From a virus: 64,000 nucleotides of DNA. A program made the position numbers and the translations under genes. The DNA lies in the IMG/VR virus record IMGVR_UViG_3300032296_003714, positions 43,330-107,329 of that record, one strand, 5' to 3'. Positions 16,901 to 29,940 of the stretch are shown here, in pieces (the stretch's first letter is position 1; each line of letters begins with the position of its first letter). Under the pieces are notes generated by a model that ran no database searches, had not been told where the DNA came from, and was given only the letters and a program-made list of their open reading frames with translations.

Positions 16901-19900
16901 ATGGCAACAGTACAAACTAATCAGAAAGTGTTTGTTTCTCCAGGTGTCTATACCTCAGAAACAGATTTGTCTTTTGTGGCTCAGAGTGTGGGTGTAACTA
17001 CACTTGGTTTGGTTGGTGAGACTCTTAAGGGTCCAGCATTCGAACCTATTTTCATAACAAATTACGACGAGTTCCAAGCGTTCTTCGGAGGCTCAGAACC
17101 AACAAAATTTGTGAATACACAAATACCAAAATATGAAGCTTCATATATAGCTAAATCATATTTACAACAATCTAACCAACTTTTCGTAACAAGAGTTTTA
17201 GGTTTATCAGGATACGACGCGGGTCCTTCTTGGACTTTAAAAGTCACGGCTAATGTTGACCCTGGAACAATCGGGCTTGACCCAGCTGTAGGAACTCCGT
17301 GGACAATCAACTTTTCTGGTGTTGCTTCTGCAGATACGGTAACTCTAATAGGTTCTCTCCCTGATGAAATTAATAACTTGTTGAATACTCAGTATAGATT
17401 AAGTGATGGAAGTACTTCATCATTCAATCAAGACTTTAGTAATACACTCGATGCTTTTGCAACAACACCTAGTACAACAGGAACAACCGCAATAGTGTAC
17501 GGTTCTATACCAAGTGCAGATTATGTAAGTCTAACATCTTTTCGTTCAACATTAACAAATGTATTTGGTGTTGATTCACTAAACTTAGATAATAATGATT
17601 TGTCTAGTAGTGACAATTACTCTTGGTTATATTCTAATTTCTCTAACTATAGTGGAAATGATTATTCAGGTTTCTCATTTGACTATATAGTGACAAGTTT
17701 TACAACAGGTGCTTCATCAACATATTCAGGTACCCTATCAGGTAATGTATATACATATTCAGGAAGTGCTTACTCACAATATAATAATTTAGTTATCGCT
17801 ACATTACGTTCTAGAGGTATTTCACTATATGATAGTAATAATCATGGACCACAGTATGAAGTTTCAGGAACAACAGATTTGGAAATGGTTTGTACTGGTT
17901 CTTATTCGGGAGTATCAAGCAATCCATATTCAACATTCTTACTTTCAGGTGTGACAAAAGATGGTGACGATTTCTCATTTGAAACATCATTGTCAAGTGT
18001 TAGTAGTAAGTTCTTACCAAAAGTTTTAGGATATGATAACTTCGGTAAATCAAGAAATGAAGTTCCAGTTTTCGTTGAGGAGATTTATCCTGTAGCTTTA
18101 GATTACCTTTACGACAAAGGTTATATCCGTGGTTTAAGTTGTGATTTAATTGCATTACCTGCAGCTAGTACATATAACGCAGATTCAATAGCTTGGAATC
18201 TTGAAAAATATACGACCCCTACTTCACCTTTTATTGTTTCAGAATTGAGAGGTAATAAAGTTTACAAATTATTCAGATTTATTTCTATATCTGATGGTAC
18301 TTCTGCAAACACTGAAATAAAGGTATCAATAGCAAATATTTCTTTTGCTAACTTATCTTTTGATGTATTAGTAAGAAGTTTCTTTGACACAGACCAAAAC
18401 CCTGTGGTTATCGAGAAATATACAAATTGTACTATGGACCCAGCATCTAATAGTTTCGTAGGTAAGAAAATAGGTTCTTTTGATGGAGAATACCCATTGG
18501 TTTCAAAATATATCATGGTTGAAATGTCCAAAGAAGCTCCTATAGATGCTTTACCTTGTGGATTCTATGGATATGACCAAAGAATTTATGATACAACATC
18601 TAACTTATCACCTGTACCAGTGTATAAAACAAAATACGATTATCCTGGTGAACCAGTGTTTAACCCTCCTTTCGGTATTACCGCTTACGGAGCTAGTGTT
18701 AACGATTCTCCTGGTGATAATGTAAGAAGAACTTATTTAGGATTTTCAACTGTAGTAGGTGTTGATGAATCTTTCTTACAATATAAAGGTAAACAAAACC
18801 CTTCAGCTGCAACATGGGGAGTAGCATATGATTCTGTACCTTGGAATTATCTTACTCAAGGTTTCCATATGGACTCAGGAGCAACTGTTGTATCAATAGG
18901 TTCAGAATACGTGACTAGCGGAACTGCAGCATTCCAATGCGGAAGTGCGGAGTTCAGAGCAGAACCTGATACTCAAGAAAATCCATACTATTATATCTAC
19001 TCAAGAAAATACACAGTATGTTTTGCGGGTGGATTTGACGGATGGGATATCTATAGAGAATATAGGACAAACCAAGATAGATTTAGACTTGGAGCGGCAG
19101 GTTACTTAGCAGGTGCTGCACCATCAACAAGATACCCAACAGCAACTGGTCAAGGTATGTTTAAGAGAATTGTGGTAGCCAAAAATACTCAAGACTTTGC
19201 AAACACTGACTACTACGCTTACCTATTAGGTATTCTATCTTTCTCAAACCCTGAATCTACAAACATCAATGTTTTTGCAACATCAAGTATTGATTATGTA
19301 AACAATGGTAAACTTGTGGAACAGGCGGTTAACATGGTACAGTTCTCAAGAGCGGACTCTGTGTACATCGCAACAACTCCTGACTACCCAATGTATCAGC
19401 CAGATTCAACTGACCCTGAATTGATTATTCAACCTCAAGAGGCGGTAGATAACTTAGATAACACAGGTCTTGATTCAAACTATACAGCTACTTACTATCC
19501 ATGGATTTTGGTTAGGGATACTGTTAACAATACACAATTATATCTTCCACCAACAGGTGAGGTTTGTAGAAACTTGGCTCTTACAGATAACATCGCATTC
19601 CCTTGGTTCGCATCGGCGGGTTACACAAGAGGTCTTGTAAACTCTGTTAAGGCAAGAGTTAAACTAACTCAAGAAGGTAGAGATATTCTTTATCAAGGTA
19701 GAATCAACCCAATCGCAACTTTCTCTGATGTAGGAACTGTAATTTGGGGTAACAAAACTCTACAAGTTGCTGACTCAGCACTTAACAGATTGAATGTTAG
19801 AAGATTACTACTTCAGGCTCGTAAGTTGATTTCAGCGGTAGCAGTTAGATTGTTGTTCGAACAAAACGACCAAATCGTTAGACAACAGTTCTTGGATAGT

Positions 19901-20095
19901 GTTAACCCAATCCTTGATTCAATCAGAAGAGACAGAGGTCTTTATGACTTCAGAGTAACGGTTTCTTCTTCACCTGAAGATTTGGATAGAAACACACTAA
20001 CAGGTAGAATTTATCTAAAACCAACGAAAGCACTTGAATTCATTGAGATTGAGTTCTTGATTACACCAACAGGTGCTTCGTTTGAAAATATCTAA
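16901..20095 (+). CDS. contractile tail sheath protein
   Basis: VSPGVYTSETD, GETLKGPAFEP, PWFASAGYTRG, WGNKTL, RLNVRRLL and KPTKALEFIEIEF motifs. Confidence 0.96.
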   Translation: MATVQTNQKVFVSPGVYTSETDLSFVAQSVGVTTLGLVGETLKGPAFEPIFITNYDEFQAFFGGSEPTKFVNTQIPKYEASYIAKSYLQQSNQLFVTRVLGLSGYDAGPSWTLKVTANVDPGTIGLDPAVGTPWTINFSGVASADTVTLIGSLPDEINNLLNTQYRLSDGSTSSFNQDFSNTLDAFATTPSTTGTTAIVYGSIPSADYVSLTSFRSTLTNVFGVDSLNLDNNDLSSSDNYSWLYSNFSNYSGNDYSGFSFDYIVTSFTTGASSTYSGTLSGNVYTYSGSAYSQYNNLVIATLRSRGISLYDSNNHGPQYEVSGTTDLEMVCTGSYSGVSSNPYSTFLLSGVTKDGDDFSFETSLSSVSSKFLPKVLGYDNFGKSRNEVPVFVEEIYPVALDYLYDKGYIRGLSCDLIALPAASTYNADSIAWNLEKYTTPTSPFIVSELRGNKVYKLFRFISISDGTSANTEIKVSIANISFANLSFDVLVRSFFDTDQNPVVIEKYTNCTMDPASNSFVGKKIGSFDGEYPLVSKYIMVEMSKEAPIDALPCGFYGYDQRIYDTTSNLSPVPVYKTKYDYPGEPVFNPPFGITAYGASVNDSPGDNVRRTYLGFSTVVGVDESFLQYKGKQNPSAATWGVAYDSVPWNYLTQGFHMDSGATVVSIGSEYVTSGTAAFQCGSAEFRAEPDTQENPYYYIYSRKYTVCFAGGFDGWDIYREYRTNQDRFRLGAAGYLAGAAPSTRYPTATGQGMFKRIVVAKNTQDFANTDYYAYLLGILSFSNPESTNINVFATSSIDYVNNGKLVEQAVNMVQFSRADSVYIATTPDYPMYQPDSTDPELIIQPQEAVDNLDNTGLDSNYTATYYPWILVRDTVNNTQLYLPPTGEVCRNLALTDNIAFPWFASAGYTRGLVNSVKARVKLTQEGRDILYQGRINPIATFSDVGTVIWGNKTLQVADSALNRLNVRRLLLQARKLISAVAVRLLFEQNDQIVRQQFLDSVNPILDSIRRDRGLYDFRVTVSSSPEDLDRNTLTGRIYLKPTKALEFIEIEFLITPTGASFENI

Positions 20096-20164: not shown

Positions 20165-20542
20165 ATGAGATATATTATTTCTGAATCAAGATTGGAGGGA
20201 GCTCTGGAAAAAGTTTTTAATCAATATATAAATCTTGATGAGTTAAAATACTATCATCCTGTTGAGGAAACAGAAGATGGTGAAGAATACGATGATACAA
20301 ATAGAACTGCATTTTATTTAGGGGAAGACCCTTTGGATGGTGAACAGATTTTATGGTATTATGAGTGTGATTATTTTGATGAAAATGCGGTAGATATAAG
20401 GAGAAACTGTCCATTGTTAAGAATAGAATCAAACATAAAAGATACATTTGACGGTATTTTTGGAGATTTTTGGGTTGAACCATTTAAGAAATGGATTAAC
20501 TATTATTTGGATTTGAATGTCAAAAAAATTGATTATTTATAA
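20165..20542 (+). CDS. acidic hypothetical protein
   Basis: 125-aa ORF with its own TATTTAT motif; N-terminal YIISES tag. Confidence 0.65.
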   Translation: MRYIISESRLEGALEKVFNQYINLDELKYYHPVEETEDGEEYDDTNRTAFYLGEDPLDGEQILWYYECDYFDENAVDIRRNCPLLRIESNIKDTFDGIFGDFWVEPFKKWINYYLDLNVKKIDYL

Positions 20543-20561: not shown

Positions 20562-21386
20562 ATGGTTTACATTATTAAAGAAGGTTTTAAGGATGAGGCA
20601 ACACCAATAATGAAATATTATGCCTTTGATTGGGATGATAATATTGTTCACATGCCGACAAAGATTATGTTGAAAACTGAAAATGGTGATGAGATTGGTA
20701 TGAGTACGGACGATTTTGCAAAGTACAGACATGATATTGGAAAAAAACCTGTTCAATACAACGGTGAAAAAATTGTTGGTTTTTCGGATAATGCGTTCAG
20801 AAATTTCAAAACTGCGGGAGACAAACAATTTATTATTGATTCAATGAAAGCTAAATTAGGTCCTGCGTTTGATGATTTTAGAGAAGCGATAAACAACGGG
20901 TCAATTTTTGCGATAATCACGGCTAGAGGTCACAACCCTAACACACTAAAACAAGCGATTTATAATTATATCGTTAGTGGTTTCGGCGGGATAGACAAAG
21001 ATGAATTATTAAAAAACTTAAGAAAGTATAGAACTTTTGTGGATGAAGAGGATATGTCAGACAATGAATTGATTAAAAGTTATTTGGAGTTGAACAAATA
21101 TCACCCTGTAACTTTTGGTCAAGGTGGGGCTGAAAATCCTGAAGAATTAAAAGTTATGGCAATGGATGATTTTGTATCTTATATTAAAGGAATGTCCGCA
21201 GTTCTCAATAAGAAGGCGTATATAAAAAAAGATATAGGAAATAAATTTATACCATCTAAACCAACTATAGGGTTTTCAGATGATGACCCTAGAAATGTAG
21301 AAGTAATGAAAAAGCATTTTGAAGATAAACCGGATAAAATGGTAAAGACTTATTCTACTGCAACTGGAACTAAAAAAGAAGTATAA
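20562..21386 (+). CDS. HAD-superfamily phosphatase
   Basis: FDWDDNI (DxD motif I), IITARGH (motif II) and IGFSDDD (motif IV). Confidence 0.75.
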   Translation: MVYIIKEGFKDEATPIMKYYAFDWDDNIVHMPTKIMLKTENGDEIGMSTDDFAKYRHDIGKKPVQYNGEKIVGFSDNAFRNFKTAGDKQFIIDSMKAKLGPAFDDFREAINNGSIFAIITARGHNPNTLKQAIYNYIVSGFGGIDKDELLKNLRKYRTFVDEEDMSDNELIKSYLELNKYHPVTFGQGGAENPEELKVMAMDDFVSYIKGMSAVLNKKAYIKKDIGNKFIPSKPTIGFSDDDPRNVEVMKKHFEDKPDKMVKTYSTATGTKKEV

Positions 21387-21481: not shown

Positions 21482-21970
21482 ATGGCTGATTTATTAATGA
21501 AAATGCCTCTACCTTATGAACCGAAAAGACAAAATCGTTTCATTTTAAGGTTCCCTAGTACACTAGGTATAAATGAGTGGTTTGTAGAGACATCTAAGAG
21601 ACCTAGTATTAAAATCAAAGAAACTGAAATTCCTTTTTTAAATACATCAACATTCGTTGCGGGCAGATTCAACTGGGATGCAATTCCTGTTACATTCAGA
21701 GACCCAATCGGACCTTCTGCAGCTCAAGCTCTTATGGAGTGGGTTCGTTTACATGCTGAGTCTGTTACAGGTCGTATGGGTTATGCTGCGGGTTACAAAA
21801 AAGACATCGACATTGAAATGTTGGACCCGACAGGTGTGGTAGTTGAAAAGTGGATTCTATACGGAACTTTCTTAACGGGAGTAGACTTTGGTGTATTAAA
21901 CTACGCTCAAGACGGACTTTCAACTATAAGTGCAACACTTAGAATGGATAGATGTGTGTTAGTTTACTAA
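21482..21970 (+). CDS. tail tube protein (T4 gp19-like)
   Basis: EPKRQNRF, AGRFNW, YKKDIDIEMLDPTG.VVEKW and TLRMD motifs; follows the sheath. Confidence 0.92.
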   Translation: MADLLMKMPLPYEPKRQNRFILRFPSTLGINEWFVETSKRPSIKIKETEIPFLNTSTFVAGRFNWDAIPVTFRDPIGPSAAQALMEWVRLHAESVTGRMGYAAGYKKDIDIEMLDPTGVVVEKWILYGTFLTGVDFGVLNYAQDGLSTISATLRMDRCVLVY

Positions 21971-22002: not shown

Positions 22003-22042
22003 TTAACCCTAAAGGTAATAAACTTTTAGGGTTAATTTTTTT
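22003..22042 (+). terminator. stem-loop plus U-tract between the tube and chaperone genes
   Basis: TTAACCCTAAAG...TTTTAGGGTTAA followed by TTTTTTT. Confidence 0.65.
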
Positions 22043-22044
22043 AT

Positions 22045-22788
22045 ATGGATGAACAATCAAGAATATATGGTCAACAAAATTTGACACTACCACACGATGT
22101 GGTTCCTTTACCATCAGAAGGTGTTTTTTATAAAAACAAGAAAAAATCATTAAAGGTCGGATATTTGACTGCCTCTGACGAAAATATACTTTTGGCTGGT
22201 GGCATGGATATTACAACAAATTTATTAAGAAACAAAATTTACGAACCTGATATTAGGGTTGATGATTTATTGGAAGGTGATGTTGAAGCAATATTAATCT
22301 TCTTGAGAAATACCGCTTTCGGTCCGGAAATGGAGTTAACATTAACAGACCCAAAAACATCCAAAAAGTTTAATGCATCTGTAATGTTAGATTCACTATC
22401 TGTAATTAAAGGGCAAGAGCCATCACCTGATGGAACTTTCACAACCACACTTCCAAAAAGTGAAAGTGTTATTAAATTGAAACCCTTAACGTATGGTGAG
22501 ATTATTGAAATTAACAGAATGGCTGAATCATACCCACAAGGTAGAGTATATCCAAAAGTCACGAATAAATTACAAAAACAAATCGTTGAAATAAATGGTG
22601 TTTCTGATAAAATAGAAATTGCTAAATTTGTGGAACAGATGCCAATTATGGACTCAAAGTTCATTCAAAAATTTATTAATGAAAACGAACCTAAATTGGA
22701 TATGGCTAAATATGTTACAACCCCATCAGGAGAAAAACTACAAGTTAATGTAGGTTTTGGGGTAGACTTTTTTCGCCCTTTCTTCTGA
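22045..22788 (+). CDS. tail assembly chaperone / T4 gp26-like baseplate hub protein
   Basis: VPLPSEGVFY, YLTASDENIL and LLEGDVEAILIFLRNTAFG motifs; position between tube and tape measure. Confidence 0.8.
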   Translation: MDEQSRIYGQQNLTLPHDVVPLPSEGVFYKNKKKSLKVGYLTASDENILLAGGMDITTNLLRNKIYEPDIRVDDLLEGDVEAILIFLRNTAFGPEMELTLTDPKTSKKFNASVMLDSLSVIKGQEPSPDGTFTTTLPKSESVIKLKPLTYGEIIEINRMAESYPQGRVYPKVTNKLQKQIVEINGVSDKIEIAKFVEQMPIMDSKFIQKFINENEPKLDMAKYVTTPSGEKLQVNVGFGVDFFRPFF

Positions 22789-22927
22789 GTATAGAAAGGG
22801 GCAAATAGATGAGTTCTATTATCTATCAACTTTATTCCATGTTAGTTGGTCTGATTTTGAAAAAATGCCTCTTTTTGTGAGAAAATATTTGTTAGATAAA
22901 TGGTACGAAGTCAATAAGAAGGACTGA
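22766..22927 (+). CDS. +1-frame extension of the chaperone (gp51/GT-like), probably reached by ribosomal frameshift
   Basis: Open from TAG 22763-65 to TGA 22925-27: (F)ALSSEYRKGQIDEFYYLSTLFHVSWSDFEKMPLFVRKYLLDKWYEVNKKD*. No ATG until 22865. Overlaps TTT TTT CGC at the chaperone 3' end. Confidence 0.7.
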   Translation, partial: TFFALSSEYRKGQIDEFYYLSTLFHVSWSDFEKMPLFVRKYLLDKWYEVNKKD

Positions 22928-22943
22928 ATTTTCAGTCCTTCTT
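22916..22943 (+). terminator. perfect 12-bp hairpin at the end of the frameshift extension
   Basis: AAGAAGGACTGA-attt-TCAGTCCTTCTT. Confidence 0.7.
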
Positions 22944-22968
22944 CTATTTATAATATAAATAATTTTTA

Positions 22969-24930
22969 ATGCCAGGAATCTTTGATGATATAGTAAAACT
23001 TTTTGCACCCCTCGGAGAAGTATTACCAACAGGAGCAAGAGTTGGGGAAATATTCAAAACTGTAATTGGCGGTACAGACGAGATAAATTCTAGGTTTACC
23101 CAAGGTAGACAAAGAGTAACTGAATTTAGTGCGGCAATTGGTGATAGTATTCCGATGGTAGAGCGATTGGGTGGTACTGCAAAAGATGCTGTTGGTGTCA
23201 TTGATGATGTTGCAGCTGCGACAAAAAGAAATGTGGTTGCAAGTGCTGAGGAAGTGTCAAAATTATATTCTGTACAACAATTAACAGGAACAGACGCTAA
23301 AAGACTTGTTGAAACATTCCAAAATGTAGGTATTCAGTTTTCACAAATAAGTGACCATGTAGGTGAATCGATAAAATATATACAAAGTGTTGGTGGTAAT
23401 GCTAGAGATATAATGAGGGAAGTTAATGGGTATGTTGAAAAAATTAACCAATATAATTTTCAGGATGGTGTATTAGGTCTTACTAGAATGGCAACACAAG
23501 CACAGCTATTGAAGTTTGATATGGGTAGTACTTTGGGTTTTGCTGAAAAAGTTATGGACCCCGAAGGCGCAATTAAAATGGCATCTGCCTTTCAAAGACT
23601 TGGAGTTGCTGCTGGAGATTTAACTGACCCATTCCAATTGATGTATAAGTCATTAAATGACCCCGAAGGATTACAAAATAGTATTGTCAACATGACAAAA
23701 CAATTTACCTATTTTGATGAGAAGGCAAATGCTTTCAAAATAAATCCGCAGGGTATGTTAATGTTAAGACAAATAGGTACTGAAGCGGGAATAAGTAGTA
23801 CTGAACTATCTAAGATGGCATTAAATGCTGCAGATTTAGATAAAAAAATCTCACAAATATCACCATCTTTCGATTTCGAAAACGAAGAAGACAAACAATA
23901 TATTGCTAATATTGCTAAGATGGGTAAAGGTGGTGAATATGAAATAACTGTTAAAGATGAAAAAACGGGAAAAGATAAGACTATCCTTTTACAAGAAGCA
24001 ACAAATGAACAATTACAAGAATTAATAGATAGGCAAAAGGAAGGTAGAGAAGACCAAACAGTAGAAGATATACAAAAATTACAAATAGATGCTTTGAGTG
24101 CTGTTGTTAATGAATTGAAAGCGACAAGGGATGAATATATTGCAGGTGCTGCATCATCTAGAGAACTTACAAAAGCTCTAAACGGAATGGAACTCAGACT
24201 TTCGGCTTTGAATGCAATACAAGAATTTAAAGAAAAAAAAGGGATTGATAAAACAACAACAACAACTATTAGAGATGAGGTAGATAAAAATGTACCTCTT
24301 GTCATGAAGATGATTACGGACTTTTTTACTCAGGATAAAGAAAAGATGAAAGAAGATTTAAAAGTTCTTATTGAGCAGATAAAAGTTTTTAGTAAAGAAT
24401 CTTTGAAAGAAGTTGCGGAAGGAATTAAAAAGGCTTTGGAAATTTTAAAGGATAAGGCTCAGGGTAAGGCTTCAGGTGGATATGTCTATGGTAAAGGGAC
24501 ACAAACCTCAGATTCAATACCTACTTTATTAAGTAATGGTGAGTTTGTTGTTAACGCAGCGTCAACAGCTGCTTTTGGACCACTATTAGAAACTATCAAC
24601 GAAAACCCTAACTATGATTTGAAACCGTTTGCAAATCAAGGATTGGAGCTCAAAAACACCAACGATATTGCAGCTTCAACCATAACCAACAGAAGTATAA
24701 CGGAACAAATATCCAATTTGAACACATCTACATCTAATACTGAAACAAAAACGAGTAAAATTGAATTTGGAGAAATTTCACCGCTTAAAGTGATTTTTGA
24801 AAAAGGACCAGGATTTTCAGACAGTGATATGGCAATGCTCGAATATAATCTTGGTAAGAGTAATATTACAGAACAACTAACTAAGAGCATATCGGAAAAA
24901 CTAAAGGTTTTACAAGTTAAAGAGGCATAA
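22969..24930 (+). CDS. tape measure protein
   Basis: Helical Ala/Gln-rich protein after the chaperone; ASGGYV.GKGT.TSDSIPTLLSNGEFVVNA motif typical of TMP C-termini. Confidence 0.85.
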   Translation: MPGIFDDIVKLFAPLGEVLPTGARVGEIFKTVIGGTDEINSRFTQGRQRVTEFSAAIGDSIPMVERLGGTAKDAVGVIDDVAAATKRNVVASAEEVSKLYSVQQLTGTDAKRLVETFQNVGIQFSQISDHVGESIKYIQSVGGNARDIMREVNGYVEKINQYNFQDGVLGLTRMATQAQLLKFDMGSTLGFAEKVMDPEGAIKMASAFQRLGVAAGDLTDPFQLMYKSLNDPEGLQNSIVNMTKQFTYFDEKANAFKINPQGMLMLRQIGTEAGISSTELSKMALNAADLDKKISQISPSFDFENEEDKQYIANIAKMGKGGEYEITVKDEKTGKDKTILLQEATNEQLQELIDRQKEGREDQTVEDIQKLQIDALSAVVNELKATRDEYIAGAASSRELTKALNGMELRLSALNAIQEFKEKKGIDKTTTTTIRDEVDKNVPLVMKMITDFFTQDKEKMKEDLKVLIEQIKVFSKESLKEVAEGIKKALEILKDKAQGKASGGYVYGKGTQTSDSIPTLLSNGEFVVNAASTAAFGPLLETINENPNYDLKPFANQGLELKNTNDIAASTITNRSITEQISNLNTSTSNTETKTSKIEFGEISPLKVIFEKGPGFSDSDMAMLEYNLGKSNITEQLTKSISEKLKVLQVKEA

Positions 24931-24969: not shown

Positions 24970-27900
24970 ATGGCAAGTCCATTACTAGTCACATCAGAGG
25001 TTTTTAGAAAGAAAATTCTTGTTAAAAATTTGACCCCTTATAACAAGTCGCCTAGGAAAATTGTGCCTCCTGTAGACTACCCTACAAATATATCTGATTT
25101 AGCGGTTAAAGATTCCCCTGACGATTTAATTGACACACCAATCTTTGCGAAAGAACTTTATACTAAAAACCAATATGGTGCTGAGGGAGGTTATAAACAA
25201 GTGCCTGACCCAGGAGCTTTGCTTAATACTAAATCTAATGAAGGCGAGTATGGACCAGGCCAACAAGATGCTAAAATTTTAGACCAAGGATTTTCTGAAT
25301 CAAAAAAATGGAAACCATTAAACGCTTATGCTAACGGACCAACAGTTGTCGACTCAGCAGAAGCATTTTCAACTTTAGACATTGTTTATCCAAACGGAGG
25401 CAGAACCCCAAACGGTCAACCATACCCAACAACATTTAACCCTTCATCATATAGTCCTGTATCAATATTACTAACATCTGACCCACAGGGTAGTAATGGT
25501 TTGTTGAGTGCTGACTCGTATATTGCTAGATTAGGTGCCACAGTATTAAGAAAAGAATTTGAAACTAGAATTGGTAATGAGATTAGACAAAACACAATTG
25601 CACGAGCAAACATATTCAATGTTAGAAGTGGTACCGACCTATTGAACATTGTTACAGGTAGAGTTCCTTTGATACAGCCTGATTATAGAATTACAGTACC
25701 TGCAAATCCTATATTAGCGGCAACTGATTTTGCTTTAAGGTTGGCTGGTAGTATATTACCCGTATCACCTATTGTTGGTTCATATTGGGATACTAGCATT
25801 AATTCAGGGCAACCAACAACAATACAACAATTAACAAATGCTTTCAAAAGGAGCGGAACAGGTAAGTTCTTCTCAAGGGTACTTGGTTTTAACAAAACAG
25901 GCTCACAACTTTTTTTGAATAACACAGGTGGAGGACAAAAATCAAGATTATTTGATAACCTTGACTATAACAAATACAAACCAAACTATACAAGAACTAT
26001 ATTAGATAGACTCGGTGGCGCAATAGTAGGAACAACATCAACTGTTAGTAACTATTATATTGGTTCAATAACATCAGACCCATCAAGAATACTTTCTCCT
26101 GGTGGTGATGTCCCTGTGGATAGTTTCGCTAGAGAAGTTAGTACACCTGTATATGGACCAACCGAGTTGGCTCAACTATACGAAGGACCTTCAAGAAGTA
26201 GTAGATTAGGTGCTAACGGACCATCATATGGTAATGGTGGTGGTGTTGAAGGTGGATTTACTTGGGTCTCACCAAAATATAAAGGAAATGCGGGTAAGAA
26301 AGTCGGTATTGGTGGAGAAATTATACAACAAGACGAAGACTTTAAACCCTCTTCATATAACTCAACTGAATCTACAAATTCAGAATTTAGAGACGGTTCA
26401 ATACTTGATGACACACAAAGATTGATTGATAGTCAACCATCTGGAGGTAGAAGACTACAACATGTGGGAAATGCTATAGACCAAGTAAGTAAAGTTTTCC
26501 ATGATGGATATAAAGAAATAACTAAAGGTTCACAGGTTATAAAATACACAGGTGCAATAGGACAAGAGGTTGGTTATGAATACTGTAGAGTTTTTACTAA
26601 AGACGTACCATACCTCCAATACAATGATTTACAAAAAGTTGATGGTATCACGACCTCAGGTAGAAAAATATCATATTCAGTGTTGGATAATACATACAAT
26701 CTAAACATATTTCCAAATAAAAAAGATAGTGCTGGTAATTCGACTAATTTAGTCGGTGACAATGAGAACACTTATTATGCTAAGAAATATATGTTTTCTT
26801 TGGAAAATTTGGCGTGGAGAACATCAAGTACACCTGGATATACTGTATCAGATTTGCCTGTTTGTGAGAGAGGACCTAATGGTGGTAGGGTAATGTGGTT
26901 TCCACCTTACGACCTAAAGTTTTCAGAAACTAATACCGCTTCATGGAAAGATTCCTCTTTCATAGGAAGACCCGAACCAGTCTATACTTATTCAAACACA
27001 AGAAGAACAGGTTCACTGTCTTGGAAAATTGTTGTAGACCATCCATCAGTTCTAAATCTGATTGTAAATAAAGTTCTAAATAATGAAACAAACAATTCAA
27101 GAATTGATAATATGATTAATTCTTTCTTTGCGGGTTGTTTAAAATATGACTTATATGAGTTGGCGGAAAAATATCCGTTGGCGAATCCCAATGAGTTATA
27201 TAATATCCAAAGAGAACTTGATGCTGGTAAATTAAGTAAAGAACAAGTACAAACAGTAAAGAATACTTTGACAACTGGTAATGAATCACCAACAGGTCAA
27301 GAAATGAGTGTTAAAAGTAATGTTGATTTAAATACAAATAATATTCAAACAGCGTTAACAGGTATAGGTTTTTATTTTGAAAATGAAGAACCTGATAATA
27401 GTTCATCATCGTTTTCATCTTTATACGATACATATATTTTAAGAAAACCTGTAATTATTGACCAGTCCCCAACAGTTACAGACCCATATAATAGTGGACC
27501 ACAACAGGTATCGACATTTTTCAATAATGTTGTTCAGTGGAATTACGAACAGTTCAATAAAAATTTGACTGACATATACAATGGATTTAATAGTGGTAAT
27601 ATAGAAAAGGTCATATTTAATTTAGCAGGAACCACAAGTAGTTCAACTAATAGACAATATAACAATAGAGTTAACTCAAACAGGATAGAATCTATTAAAA
27701 CGTATATTAAAAATTATAAACCTGGAGGAGCCCAAAAAACTTTGGGTCAAATTTCCGAAAGCAGAATAACTTATGTTACGGCAGCTTCAGAATCTTCAGT
27801 AAGAACAAAATCAAGTTCGGGATACGGAGAGTCTTATAATTGTGGTGAAAAAGATACAAAAAAAACAGACTCAACTAATGTGAATACGGTAAACGCGATG

Positions 27901-29940
27901 GCGTGTAGAAGGATTGTGATATCATCAATAAATGTTCAACAAAAAACACCTGTTGCTCAAAATCCGGCAAATTCTAACCAACCAATAGTTACCTCTCAAA
28001 ATGGAACCACTAATGTTGTACAGAATACAAATTCCAATAGAAGTCTACCAACAAAGAACCTTTCAAAAAAAGTCTTAAGGTTGTTGTTGTCTGAGTGTGA
28101 TTACTTTGAAAGTATTAAGGAGTATACACCAATGGTTTATGATAACCTTAAAGAAAAATTAAAATTTTTCAATCCCGCATTCCACTCAACAACCCCAGAA
28201 GGGCTAAACTCAAGATTAACTTTTTTAAATCAATGTTTAAGGCCTGGTGAAACTATACCAGTTGTTAAAAGTGTTAATGGGAAGGAAACATTACAATATA
28301 ACAATTCGGTAAATACCGCATTTGGTGCACCTCCTGTTTTAGTTTTGAGAGTTGGTGATTTTTATAATACAAAAATAATACCCGACAATTTGGCAATAAC
28401 ATATGAAGGATTGGATTTGAACCCTGAAGGTATTGGTGTACAACCCATGATTGCCAATATCACATTGAGCTTCAAGTTTGTCGGAGGTAGCGGAATAAAA
28501 GACGCTGTGGACAGATTACAAAACGCTCTTTCATTCAACTACTATGCAAATACTGAAGTTTATGATGATAGGGCAGATGTTACTGATAAGAGTTTAGAAG
28601 ATTTAGATACTCTGTTTGCTTCAATATATAATCCAACACAACCACCACCAACAACAAATGAGGTTCAAAATAATGACGGTCAGAAGAACGGAGGAACCAT
28701 CGGAGAAGTTTTATCAACTACAACAACAGAATCAGGAACTACAGGACAAATATCATACACCAAGTTTTTCTCTACTTTGTCTGATAAAACACAAGAATAT
28801 TTCAGAAATGTTTTAAATAAAAATAAAGAAGTTTTATCACAATATAATGAAGGGGTTAGACAAATGTTCACCTTCACAAGAAATTATACAAAGGGTCAGA
28901 TACTAGGTTTAGGTAATGCGGAATATGGGTATATTTTTGGAAAACCCGCAAATTACCAATCTAACATGGATAGTGTTTTTTCTGGTTTGTTATCAGATAT
29001 ACAACAAGATGACGATGAATTTATAGATTTTATGTCTAAAAAAGGATTTTCAAATAAAGCTATGAGGGCGTTAAAGACTAATTATAAAAATTATGTAAGT
29101 CAAAAACAATCAACTTATTTGAATGCTCTAAGTAAAACAATACAAGATTTTACACTATTACAACAAAACTATGTTATGGAAATTGCTAAATTAAATGCAA
29201 TAACATTTGGTAGAGTCGTGGGTCTTAATACTAAAGTTTCAGGAACTGACGGTTATCAAGAGAAAAATAATAATACTGTTACTTATTTTACAACTGGGGA
29301 CTCATTTTCAAATCTTACTAAAGACGGGGTTACACTTAGAACTTCATTAGGTCAATTTGCAATTGAGTGTGAAAAAACAATTTCTTTTGGAAAAGAAAAC
29401 TATAGAAATCAATTAGTCAGACCGAACAATGAAAAATTCGTTAAAGACAACATTTTCAAACAAGTAAGTGGTAATGGGAAGTTCGCTAGTGCAAATTTCC
29501 AAAGAGAGTATGTAATATTGAGTAATGAAGTTGTTGATATAAACAAATATAGTGCATTCAAAAGTTTTTTAATTAATGATATATTGAATACAAAATCACT
29601 TATGGAAAATGGAAATACTAATATAAGCGAAATGTTTGATGAATATTGGACTGGTCAAGTAAGACCAATTTTTGAAAAAGAAAACAAAGCGGCTTTAGAA
29701 TTTCTTGATTATTTAGAAACCAATACACTTAAAGATTATATTAACTATACTGCTTTAAAGGGACAGAGTGACAAAACTCTTTTCTATAGTAATCAACAAG
29801 ACGCTAATGAAGACTCTCTGAAAAATAAAAGAAAAGATGTTATTAATTCATTAGGAAAGTCAAGTAATAGTAATACAATTAAAAGTACTTTTAACGACGT
29901 GGAAGGTTCGATAAACATAACTAAAGTGAAACTAAACTAA
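24970..29940 (+). CDS. large baseplate / tail-tube-initiator-like protein with an internal OmpA-like domain
   Basis: WFPPYDLKFSE...FIGRPEPVYTY and GAPPVLVLRVGDFY tube-initiator-like motifs; follows the TMP. Confidence 0.6.
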   Translation: MASPLLVTSEVFRKKILVKNLTPYNKSPRKIVPPVDYPTNISDLAVKDSPDDLIDTPIFAKELYTKNQYGAEGGYKQVPDPGALLNTKSNEGEYGPGQQDAKILDQGFSESKKWKPLNAYANGPTVVDSAEAFSTLDIVYPNGGRTPNGQPYPTTFNPSSYSPVSILLTSDPQGSNGLLSADSYIARLGATVLRKEFETRIGNEIRQNTIARANIFNVRSGTDLLNIVTGRVPLIQPDYRITVPANPILAATDFALRLAGSILPVSPIVGSYWDTSINSGQPTTIQQLTNAFKRSGTGKFFSRVLGFNKTGSQLFLNNTGGGQKSRLFDNLDYNKYKPNYTRTILDRLGGAIVGTTSTVSNYYIGSITSDPSRILSPGGDVPVDSFAREVSTPVYGPTELAQLYEGPSRSSRLGANGPSYGNGGGVEGGFTWVSPKYKGNAGKKVGIGGEIIQQDEDFKPSSYNSTESTNSEFRDGSILDDTQRLIDSQPSGGRRLQHVGNAIDQVSKVFHDGYKEITKGSQVIKYTGAIGQEVGYEYCRVFTKDVPYLQYNDLQKVDGITTSGRKISYSVLDNTYNLNIFPNKKDSAGNSTNLVGDNENTYYAKKYMFSLENLAWRTSSTPGYTVSDLPVCERGPNGGRVMWFPPYDLKFSETNTASWKDSSFIGRPEPVYTYSNTRRTGSLSWKIVVDHPSVLNLIVNKVLNNETNNSRIDNMINSFFAGCLKYDLYELAEKYPLANPNELYNIQRELDAGKLSKEQVQTVKNTLTTGNESPTGQEMSVKSNVDLNTNNIQTALTGIGFYFENEEPDNSSSSFSSLYDTYILRKPVIIDQSPTVTDPYNSGPQQVSTFFNNVVQWNYEQFNKNLTDIYNGFNSGNIEKVIFNLAGTTSSSTNRQYNNRVNSNRIESIKTYIKNYKPGGAQKTLGQISESRITYVTAASESSVRTKSSSGYGESYNCGEKDTKKTDSTNVNTVNAMACRRIVISSINVQQKTPVAQNPANSNQPIVTSQNGTTNVVQNTNSNRSLPTKNLSKKVLRLLLSECDYFESIKEYTPMVYDNLKEKLKFFNPAFHSTTPEGLNSRLTFLNQCLRPGETIPVVKSVNGKETLQYNNSVNTAFGAPPVLVLRVGDFYNTKIIPDNLAITYEGLDLNPEGIGVQPMIANITLSFKFVGGSGIKDAVDRLQNALSFNYYANTEVYDDRADVTDKSLEDLDTLFASIYNPTQPPPTTNEVQNNDGQKNGGTIGEVLSTTTTESGTTGQISYTKFFSTLSDKTQEYFRNVLNKNKEVLSQYNEGVRQMFTFTRNYTKGQILGLGNAEYGYIFGKPANYQSNMDSVFSGLLSDIQQDDDEFIDFMSKKGFSNKAMRALKTNYKNYVSQKQSTYLNALSKTIQDFTLLQQNYVMEIAKLNAITFGRVVGLNTKVSGTDGYQEKNNNTVTYFTTGDSFSNLTKDGVTLRTSLGQFAIECEKTISFGKENYRNQLVRPNNEKFVKDNIFKQVSGNGKFASANFQREYVILSNEVVDINKYSAFKSFLINDILNTKSLMENGNTNISEMFDEYWTGQVRPIFEKENKAALEFLDYLETNTLKDYINYTALKGQSDKTLFYSNQQDANEDSLKNKRKDVINSLGKSSNSNTIKSTFNDVEGSINITKVKLN

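Follow-up and report, generated by a model that had tools for sequence, protein, structure and literature searches.

A probable programmed +1 ribosomal frameshift in the gp26-like tail assembly chaperone gene of a jumbo myophage and its relatives

The tail module and its overlapping reading frames

The window, a stretch of 64,000 nucleotides, is part of a 107-kb IMG/VR viral contig with an estimated completeness of 35%. Close relatives lie on contigs of 317-321 kb, and the window phage is therefore taken to be a jumbo phage. Its tail module comprises the following features:

16901-20095, + strand: tail sheath gene, 1064 aa (phrog_23 tail sheath, E 3.2e-56), which opens the tail module
20165-20542 and 20562-21386, + strand: two ORFs of 125 and 274 aa between the sheath and tube genes
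21482-21970, + strand: tail tube gene, 162 aa (phrog_4542 tail tube, E 4.5e-24; weak match to Pfam Phage_T4_gp19)
22003-22035, + strand: terminator-like hairpin with a 14-bp stem and a T run (T7), between the tube and chaperone genes
22045-22788, + strand: putative gp26-like tail assembly chaperone gene, short (zero-frame) form, 247 aa (PF12322, phrog_150)
22768-22776, + strand: putative shift site TTT TTT CGC, with the P-site UUU at 22771-22773, predicted re-pairing on UUC at 22772-22774, CGC at 22774-22776 as the zero-frame A-site codon and predicted resumption at GCC, 22775-22777
22775-22927, + strand: +1-frame extension, 50 codons (ALSSEYRKGQ...NKKD) and a TGA stop, by translation of a frame that is open from 22766
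22776-22800, + strand: local 8-bp hairpin (CCCTTTCT / AGAAAGGG) directly after the putative shift site
22916-22943, + strand: terminator-like hairpin with a 12-bp stem (-19 kcal/mol, z -5.1), which contains the extension stop codon and lies just before the tape measure gene
22969-24930, + strand: tape measure protein gene, 653 aa (phrog_25241 and four other tape measure PHROGs, best E 8e-18)
24970-29940, + strand: ORF of 1656 aa directly 3' of the tape measure gene, with no PHROG match

The sheath protein is unusually long, and its match to known sheath proteins is confined to the last 220 residues. Neither a Pfam nor a PHROG match was found for the 125-aa and 274-aa ORFs, which, like the 1656-aa ORF, probably encode components of the tail or baseplate. 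The two terminator-like hairpins that bracket the chaperone gene suggest a stepwise attenuation of expression from tube to chaperone to tape measure.

The product of the 247-aa gene scores 31.9 bits against PF12322 T4_baseplate (curated cut-off 24.5) and matches phrog_150, 'baseplate hub', with an E value of 2e-14. The gene is flanked by the tube gene on its 5' side and, immediately 3', by the tape measure gene, a placement shared by all relatives examined; the PHROG matches of its downstream neighbour agree with the initial annotation of the locus, which had put a tape measure gene there. Sheath, tube, gp26-like gene, extension and tape measure follow one another in this order not only in the window but also in the cultured relatives Microcystis phage Mel-JY01, Flavobacterium phage immuto, Bacillus phage SP-15 and Listeria phage LIS04. 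A terminator is annotated after the tube gene of SP-15.

The chaperone ORF ends in GAC TTT TTT CGC CCT TTC TTC TGA, with its stop codon at 22786-22788. The +1 frame is closed by a TAG at 22763-22765 and is open from 22766 to a TGA at 22925-22927 (53 codons), 41 nt short of the tape measure ATG at 22969; its first ATG, GTG or TTG is an ATG at 22866, codon 34. The initial annotation had described the 3' codons, the TAG, the start-less +1 ORF and the gap in the same terms. Because the +1 frame has no start before codon 34 and is closed upstream by the TAG, any shift into it would have to take place within 22766-22788, the interval that had been proposed. The -1 frame closes six codons past the zero-frame stop. 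No in-frame TTT of the chaperone gene other than the one at 22771 has C as its next base, and a +1 shift on this TTT would produce a predicted long form of 243 + 50 = 293 aa (P0001) with the junction ...VDFF/ALSSEYR. The codon that follows is rare, as had been remarked from inspection: the 614 arginine codons of the window's 31 long ORFs include 2 CGC and 24 CGT, the most frequent being AGA with 477. By chance, 2.3% of 53-codon +1 windows inside the genes of this window are open, and an in-frame TTT_Y falls within a stretch of seven codons at a rate of 8.4%; the anatomy of this single sequence is thus only moderately unlikely and makes a weak argument by itself. The same arrangement in 205 of 209 related loci, however, settles the observation.

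Conservation of the overlap and of the extension

Distant homologues of the chaperone (23-32% identity) were detected by tblastn of annotated phage records in five records, namely Mel-JY01, an uncultured 484-kb phage, immuto, LIS04 and SP-15. In all five the gene stands between the tube and tape measure genes, and an ORF in the +1 frame overlaps its 3' end and stops a short distance upstream of the tape measure gene; the peptides of these ORFs, at which the records annotate either nothing or a 'hypothetical protein', align with that of the window from the junction onward. Four scans of IMG/VR contributed about 200 further loci, for a total of 209 with a complete junction, which form 13 clusters at 50% identity and 42 at 70%. 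A homologous domain of about 50 aa lies in the +1 frame at 205 of the 209 loci, in another frame at three, and is missing from one (XacN1). A varying offset of the downstream frame, which the initial annotation had named as a finding that would speak against a shift, is therefore not what the homologues display.

Within the short overlap, an in-frame TTT whose next base is T or C is present at each of the 205 loci that have a +1 extension. In a tally of 181 of these loci, the site is TTT_TGG in 93, TTT_CGC in 52 and TTT_CGT in 29, and the codon after TTT is TAC, CTA, CTT, CAC, TTC or TTT in the other seven; 24 loci beyond these 181 have TTT_TGG or TTT_TAC. The 80 close relatives of the window sequence (71-90% identity) all have TTT CGY, and none has TTC or AGA at these codons, the substitutions that had been proposed as evidence against recoding. 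The Phe codon that precedes TTT CGY is TTC in eight of the 80, and hence the T6 run is not required.

The nucleotide sequence of the extension evolves as that of a protein, as two measures from the window clade (44 unique sequences) indicate: pN/pS is 0.23 in the +1 frame, compared with 0.92 and 1.48 in the other frames, and entropy is 0.97 at the third codon position, compared with 0.30-0.50 at positions 1 and 2. Beyond the zero-frame stop, the 44 sequences have no stop codon in the +1 frame and one to seven in the other frames. An alignment of 39 diverse extensions contains an invariant P and an invariant R (an 'MP...R' motif) and a near-invariant Leu at position 2, and conservation across clades begins with the residues at the junction (L2, Y and onward). 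A profile of the extension matched 1520 representative proteins among 1.84 billion, most of them called as ORFs of 50-130 aa with assorted upstream starts. The extension has no match among the Pfam and PHROG family models; its likeness to GT-type domains, which had been noted initially, is one of position and analogy.

Within the top 150 profile matches, three proteins of 308-313 aa (P0078, P0098 and P0110) combine PF12322 and the extension in a single reading frame, with the junction at the homologous point; the FF motif is missing in two of the three. The junction of P0110 (...NVFGISS...) could be a one-base miscount of a T run. Viral and metagenome contigs scanned with P0098 and P0078 yielded relatives in the +1 frame only. 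Natural fusions of this kind are the strongest indirect argument that the lineages with the overlap would also make the fused protein. The AlphaFold model of P0098 (62-row alignment; pLDDT 86.6, pTM 0.76) is confident over both parts and folds the extension, residues 235-294, into three helices; for the long form of the window, modelled from a single sequence, the pLDDT was 32, too low for the model to be used.

Four loci depart from the common arrangement. The gp26-like gene of XacN1 (279 aa) has no detectable extension domain and is not beside a recognisable tape measure gene. On two viral contigs (L100:1923-2240 and L106:1923-2210) the domain is encoded apart from the chaperone, by a gene of about 100 aa that has an ATG of its own and about 20 additional residues at the N-terminus, and the chaperone end has lost the TTT_Y site. 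In an uncultured 595-kb phage (L089:4190-4275, LR756511) the extension domain is in the -1 frame; this locus has a classical U_UUU_UUC heptamer 26 codons before the stop and a TAATG stop-start overlap, and the domain could be expressed there by a -1 frameshift or by coupled re-initiation. To judge from the three lineages with the domain in another frame, the domain can apparently function on its own, or can at least be produced as a protein apart from the chaperone, and the link between the two parts, which would usually be provided by +1 recoding, appears to have been replaced in evolution at least twice.

Predicted mechanism and competing explanations

The conserved overlap is very probably the site of a programmed +1 ribosomal frameshift that produces a 293-aa, G/GT-like long form of the chaperone, as had been proposed at the outset for UUU_CGC and as the comparison of loci bears out. 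The ORF at 22045-22788 would encode a tail assembly chaperone of a jumbo myophage, homologous to T4 gp26 and located in the position of lambda gene G. Most ribosomes would read to the TGA at 22786 and yield the 247-aa short form; a minority would shift by +1 at GAC_UUU_UUU_CGC, where tRNA-Phe (anticodon GAA) on the P-site UUU, with the rare CGC in the A site, would re-pair on the UUC one base forward. Decoding would restart at GCC and add the 50-aa domain, predicted to consist of three helices, to give the 293-aa form (...GVDFF-ALSSEYRKGQ...). By analogy with gpG and gpGT of lambda, the gp26-like part common to both forms would coat the tape measure protein, the tail tube protein would be recruited by the extension, and neither form would be expected in the virion. 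The likely driver of the shift is slow decoding in the A site, of the rare CGC or CGU in the window clade and of UGG elsewhere.

No stimulatory element common to all clades was found, and the efficiency of the shift may therefore be low. The hairpin at 22776-22800 is predicted, with some CGY/GGR co-variation, in most, not all, sequences of the window clade (mean z -1.35; z about 0 in other clades) and is broken in several close relatives. It begins 3 nt after the P-site codon and would start inside the ribosome footprint when UUU is in the P site. It is probably not a stimulator, since it is missing from other clades and from some close relatives and lies too near the site. An upstream GGGG was rejected as a stimulator resembling a Shine-Dalgarno (SD) sequence, for 8 nt separate it from the P-site codon and its conservation does not extend across clades; no SD-like sequence was found at a useful distance, and a search of 22500-23100 against Rfam returned sub-threshold chance matches only. 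Tuning of the shift by a phage-encoded tRNA is unsupported, as there is no tRNA gene on the 107-kb contig (35% of the genome).

A different reading of the overlap is that the +1 ORF is a small gene of its own, whose translation would begin at a non-canonical start, at an upstream start or through re-initiation past the chaperone stop, so that no fusion is made. GenBank records and metagenome gene callers do annotate small ORFs here, the L100 and L106 domain genes have their own ATG, and the L089 locus has its TAATG overlap. Upstream start codons in the +1 frame, of the kind that gene callers use, include an ATG at 94 of the 181 loci and are limited to GTG or TTG at 45; they are absent, however, from the remaining 42, and where present they vary in position, the ATGs often being by-products of conserved zero-frame codons. 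A conserved start of the downstream ORF, which the initial annotation had listed among the possible counterarguments, is thus not found. In the window, any upstream start would be cut off by the stops at 22763-22765 and farther upstream, and initiation at the first start codon would cost 33 of the 53 codons, conserved positions included. A separate gene would also leave the conserved overlap with its invariant TTT_Y unexplained, and in-frame fusions exist. Independent translation of the extension is, on these sequence patterns, unlikely.

The same long form could be made by a -2 ribosomal shift on the U run, or by slippage of RNA polymerase on the T run with one U dropped or two added. Mu-type chaperones reportedly use a -2 shift (Xu, Hendrix and Duda 2004). 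The window has a run of six T, and 76 of 181 loci have a run of seven (TTT TTT TGG), on which -2 re-pairing would be perfect and polymerase slippage is conceivable. At least 26 loci, however, are without a usable run, having TTC TTT CGY (8 loci), TTC TTT TGG (14), TGG TTT TGG (2), AAC TTT CTA (1) or AGC TTT CTT (1); at these, -2 re-pairing fails and the T run is only three or four bases, whereas a +1 shift on TTT_Y would still work. A +1 slip from UUU to UUY fits all of the loci, and it is more parsimonious to assign one mechanism to all of them; a -2 shift or polymerase slippage is accordingly very improbable. Although the break falls within a T6 run, a typical place for indel errors, the probability that it is a homopolymer miscount of the assembly or a recent frameshift mutation in a decaying chaperone gene is negligible, given the same layout in 81 independently assembled contigs of the same clade and in more than 120 of other clades, some without the homopolymer, and purifying selection on both frames.

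Relation to known frameshifts and to T4 gp26

Tail chaperones as a rule undergo frameshifting of the G/GT type (Levin, Hendrix and Casjens 1993; Xu, Hendrix and Duda 2004, 2013, 2014; summarised in PMC5009743). As in the gpG/gpGT pair of lambda, the gene of the window lies between the tube (in lambda, major tail) and tape measure genes, it has a short overlap with a start-less second ORF that is conserved as a protein, and its putative slippery site, also conserved, is four to six codons before the zero-frame stop; an abundant short form and a rarer C-terminally extended form would result. The window differs from lambda in that the predicted shift is +1 on UUU_Y instead of -1 on a canonical X_XXY_YYZ heptamer, in that the chaperone belongs to the T4 gp26 family (PF12322) and not to the lambda G family, and in that the extension, about 50 aa in three predicted helices, has no detectable similarity to described families, so that the binding roles given above are carried over from lambda by analogy.

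The nearest precedent for the shift site is bacterial. UUU_Ynn has a particular tendency towards +1 shifting in bacteria, as in argI (Fu and Parker 1994) and Yersinia YopN-TyeA (PMC5009743). The PA-X site of influenza A, UCC_UUU_CGU, to which the initial annotation had compared the locus, works without evident stimulators (Jagger 2012; Firth 2012; PMC5009743) and is a fair analogy for the site. In these systems, as predicted for the window family, tRNA-Phe on UUU re-pairs on UUY one base forward with no strong stimulatory RNA in evidence, and the next codon is decoded slowly, this being CGU in PA-X and, as codon rarity would predict, CGC, CGU or UGG in the window family; UUU_CGC is present in the window, and UUU_CGY or UUU_UGG in nearly all relatives. 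The shift in argI is a translational error, whereas the site of the window family is kept across a large family of phage proteins and would serve tail assembly; YopN-TyeA and PA-X are single genes, and the window site does not have UCC as the preceding codon.

Other forward shifts are less similar. Listeria phages PSA, A118 and A500 have +1 shifts in tsh and cps at CCC_UGA and CCC_UCC, and a +1 chaperone shift was predicted earlier in the archaeal myovirus HSTV-2 (PMC5009743). These too give a C-terminally extended, tail-related protein, but they involve Pro CCC with a stop codon or a pseudoknot instead of Phe UUU with a sense codon, and their proteins belong to unrelated families. A shift of the prfB type was rejected for the window, as the A-site codon CGC is a sense codon and not a stop, and the GGGG is 8 nt upstream, compared with 3 nt for the SD-like sequence of prfB.

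T4 gp26 is listed as a chaperone of hub assembly (Leiman et al., PMC3004832). Its N-terminal domain is homologous to that of the window protein, it ends in ...KEFFELL at the point equivalent to the ...VDFF junction, and gene 26 also has two products, RefSeq annotating a product 26' from an internal start. Unlike the window gene, gene 26 of T4 (L006:10803-11429) has TTC TTT GAG with neither a TTT_Y site nor an extension, its downstream neighbour is gene 25, it is not close to the tube gene, and its second product arises from an in-frame internal start, which may be a different route to two forms of the chaperone. The initial annotation had described the locus as a gp26/gp51-like pair, of which the gp26-like half is supported by PF12322 but the gp51-like half is not: comparison of the extension with T4 gp51 gave an hhalign probability of 0.24%, and gene 51 of T4 is not downstream of gene 26 but is transcribed divergently from it.

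Frameshifting in tail chaperones and +1 shifting at UUU_Y are each known, and it is the UUU_Y variant in a chaperone, its spread and the tie to gp26 that appear to be undescribed; a search of the literature in which few subscription journals were covered returned no description of this frameshift, nor of gp26 homologues as G/GT-type chaperones. To our knowledge, well-supported programmed +1 frameshifts in bacteria and phages are few, namely prfB, the tail and capsid genes of Listeria phages and a handful of others. The present loci imply that UUU_Y with a slowly read next codon would suffice and has been kept in hundreds of phage lineages, a class that gene callers, and frameshift predictors tuned to -1 heptamers, miss. 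Genes annotated as 'baseplate hub subunit' and 'hypothetical protein' would, on the frameshift reading, be the two halves of a tail assembly chaperone, and the culturable phages that have the arrangement (immuto, SP-15, LIS04 and Mel-JY01) make the prediction directly testable. The finding also suggests a relationship for the long-puzzling gp26 of T4. It is conceivable, if somewhat doubtful, that the whole superfamily of myophage chaperones homologous to T4 gp26 has, as its ancestral and dominant G/GT-like route, a +1 cassette without stimulators (UUU_UGG or UUU_CGY, usually with CCU as the next codon). If that were true, T4 gp26 would be a reduced tail assembly chaperone, possibly with two chaperone-like modules, in which the extension was lost and an internal start replaced the frameshift, and the ratio of the two forms in frameshifting phages would be tied to the supply of host tRNA-Arg(CGY) or tRNA-Trp during infection.

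In structural comparisons, Foldseek returned no match in the PDB at E <= 0.001. A wide VIA-align search with the gp26-like domain placed three structures of chaperone type, the HK97 chaperone 2ob9 (Z 5.5 over 79 residues, rmsd 3.5 A), 3fgx (Z 5.8) and YqbN 3klu (Z 5.5), at ranks 2-4 of 48,161 chains, on two separate parts of the domain and with Z scores below the noise level of about 7-8; the extension gave generic three-helix or homeodomain-like matches with Z up to 6.2, which are uninformative. Against BFVD, the model of P0098, a distant relative of the window protein, matched gp26-type proteins with a best E value of 5.6e-12. Some gp26-type proteins in BFVD are far longer than 250 aa (A0A8S5RZL9, 430 aa; G4KKH9, 475 aa; A0A8S5TGZ1, 669 aa) and align with the fusion model over more than 300 columns; these may be further in-frame fusions or carriers of extra domains.
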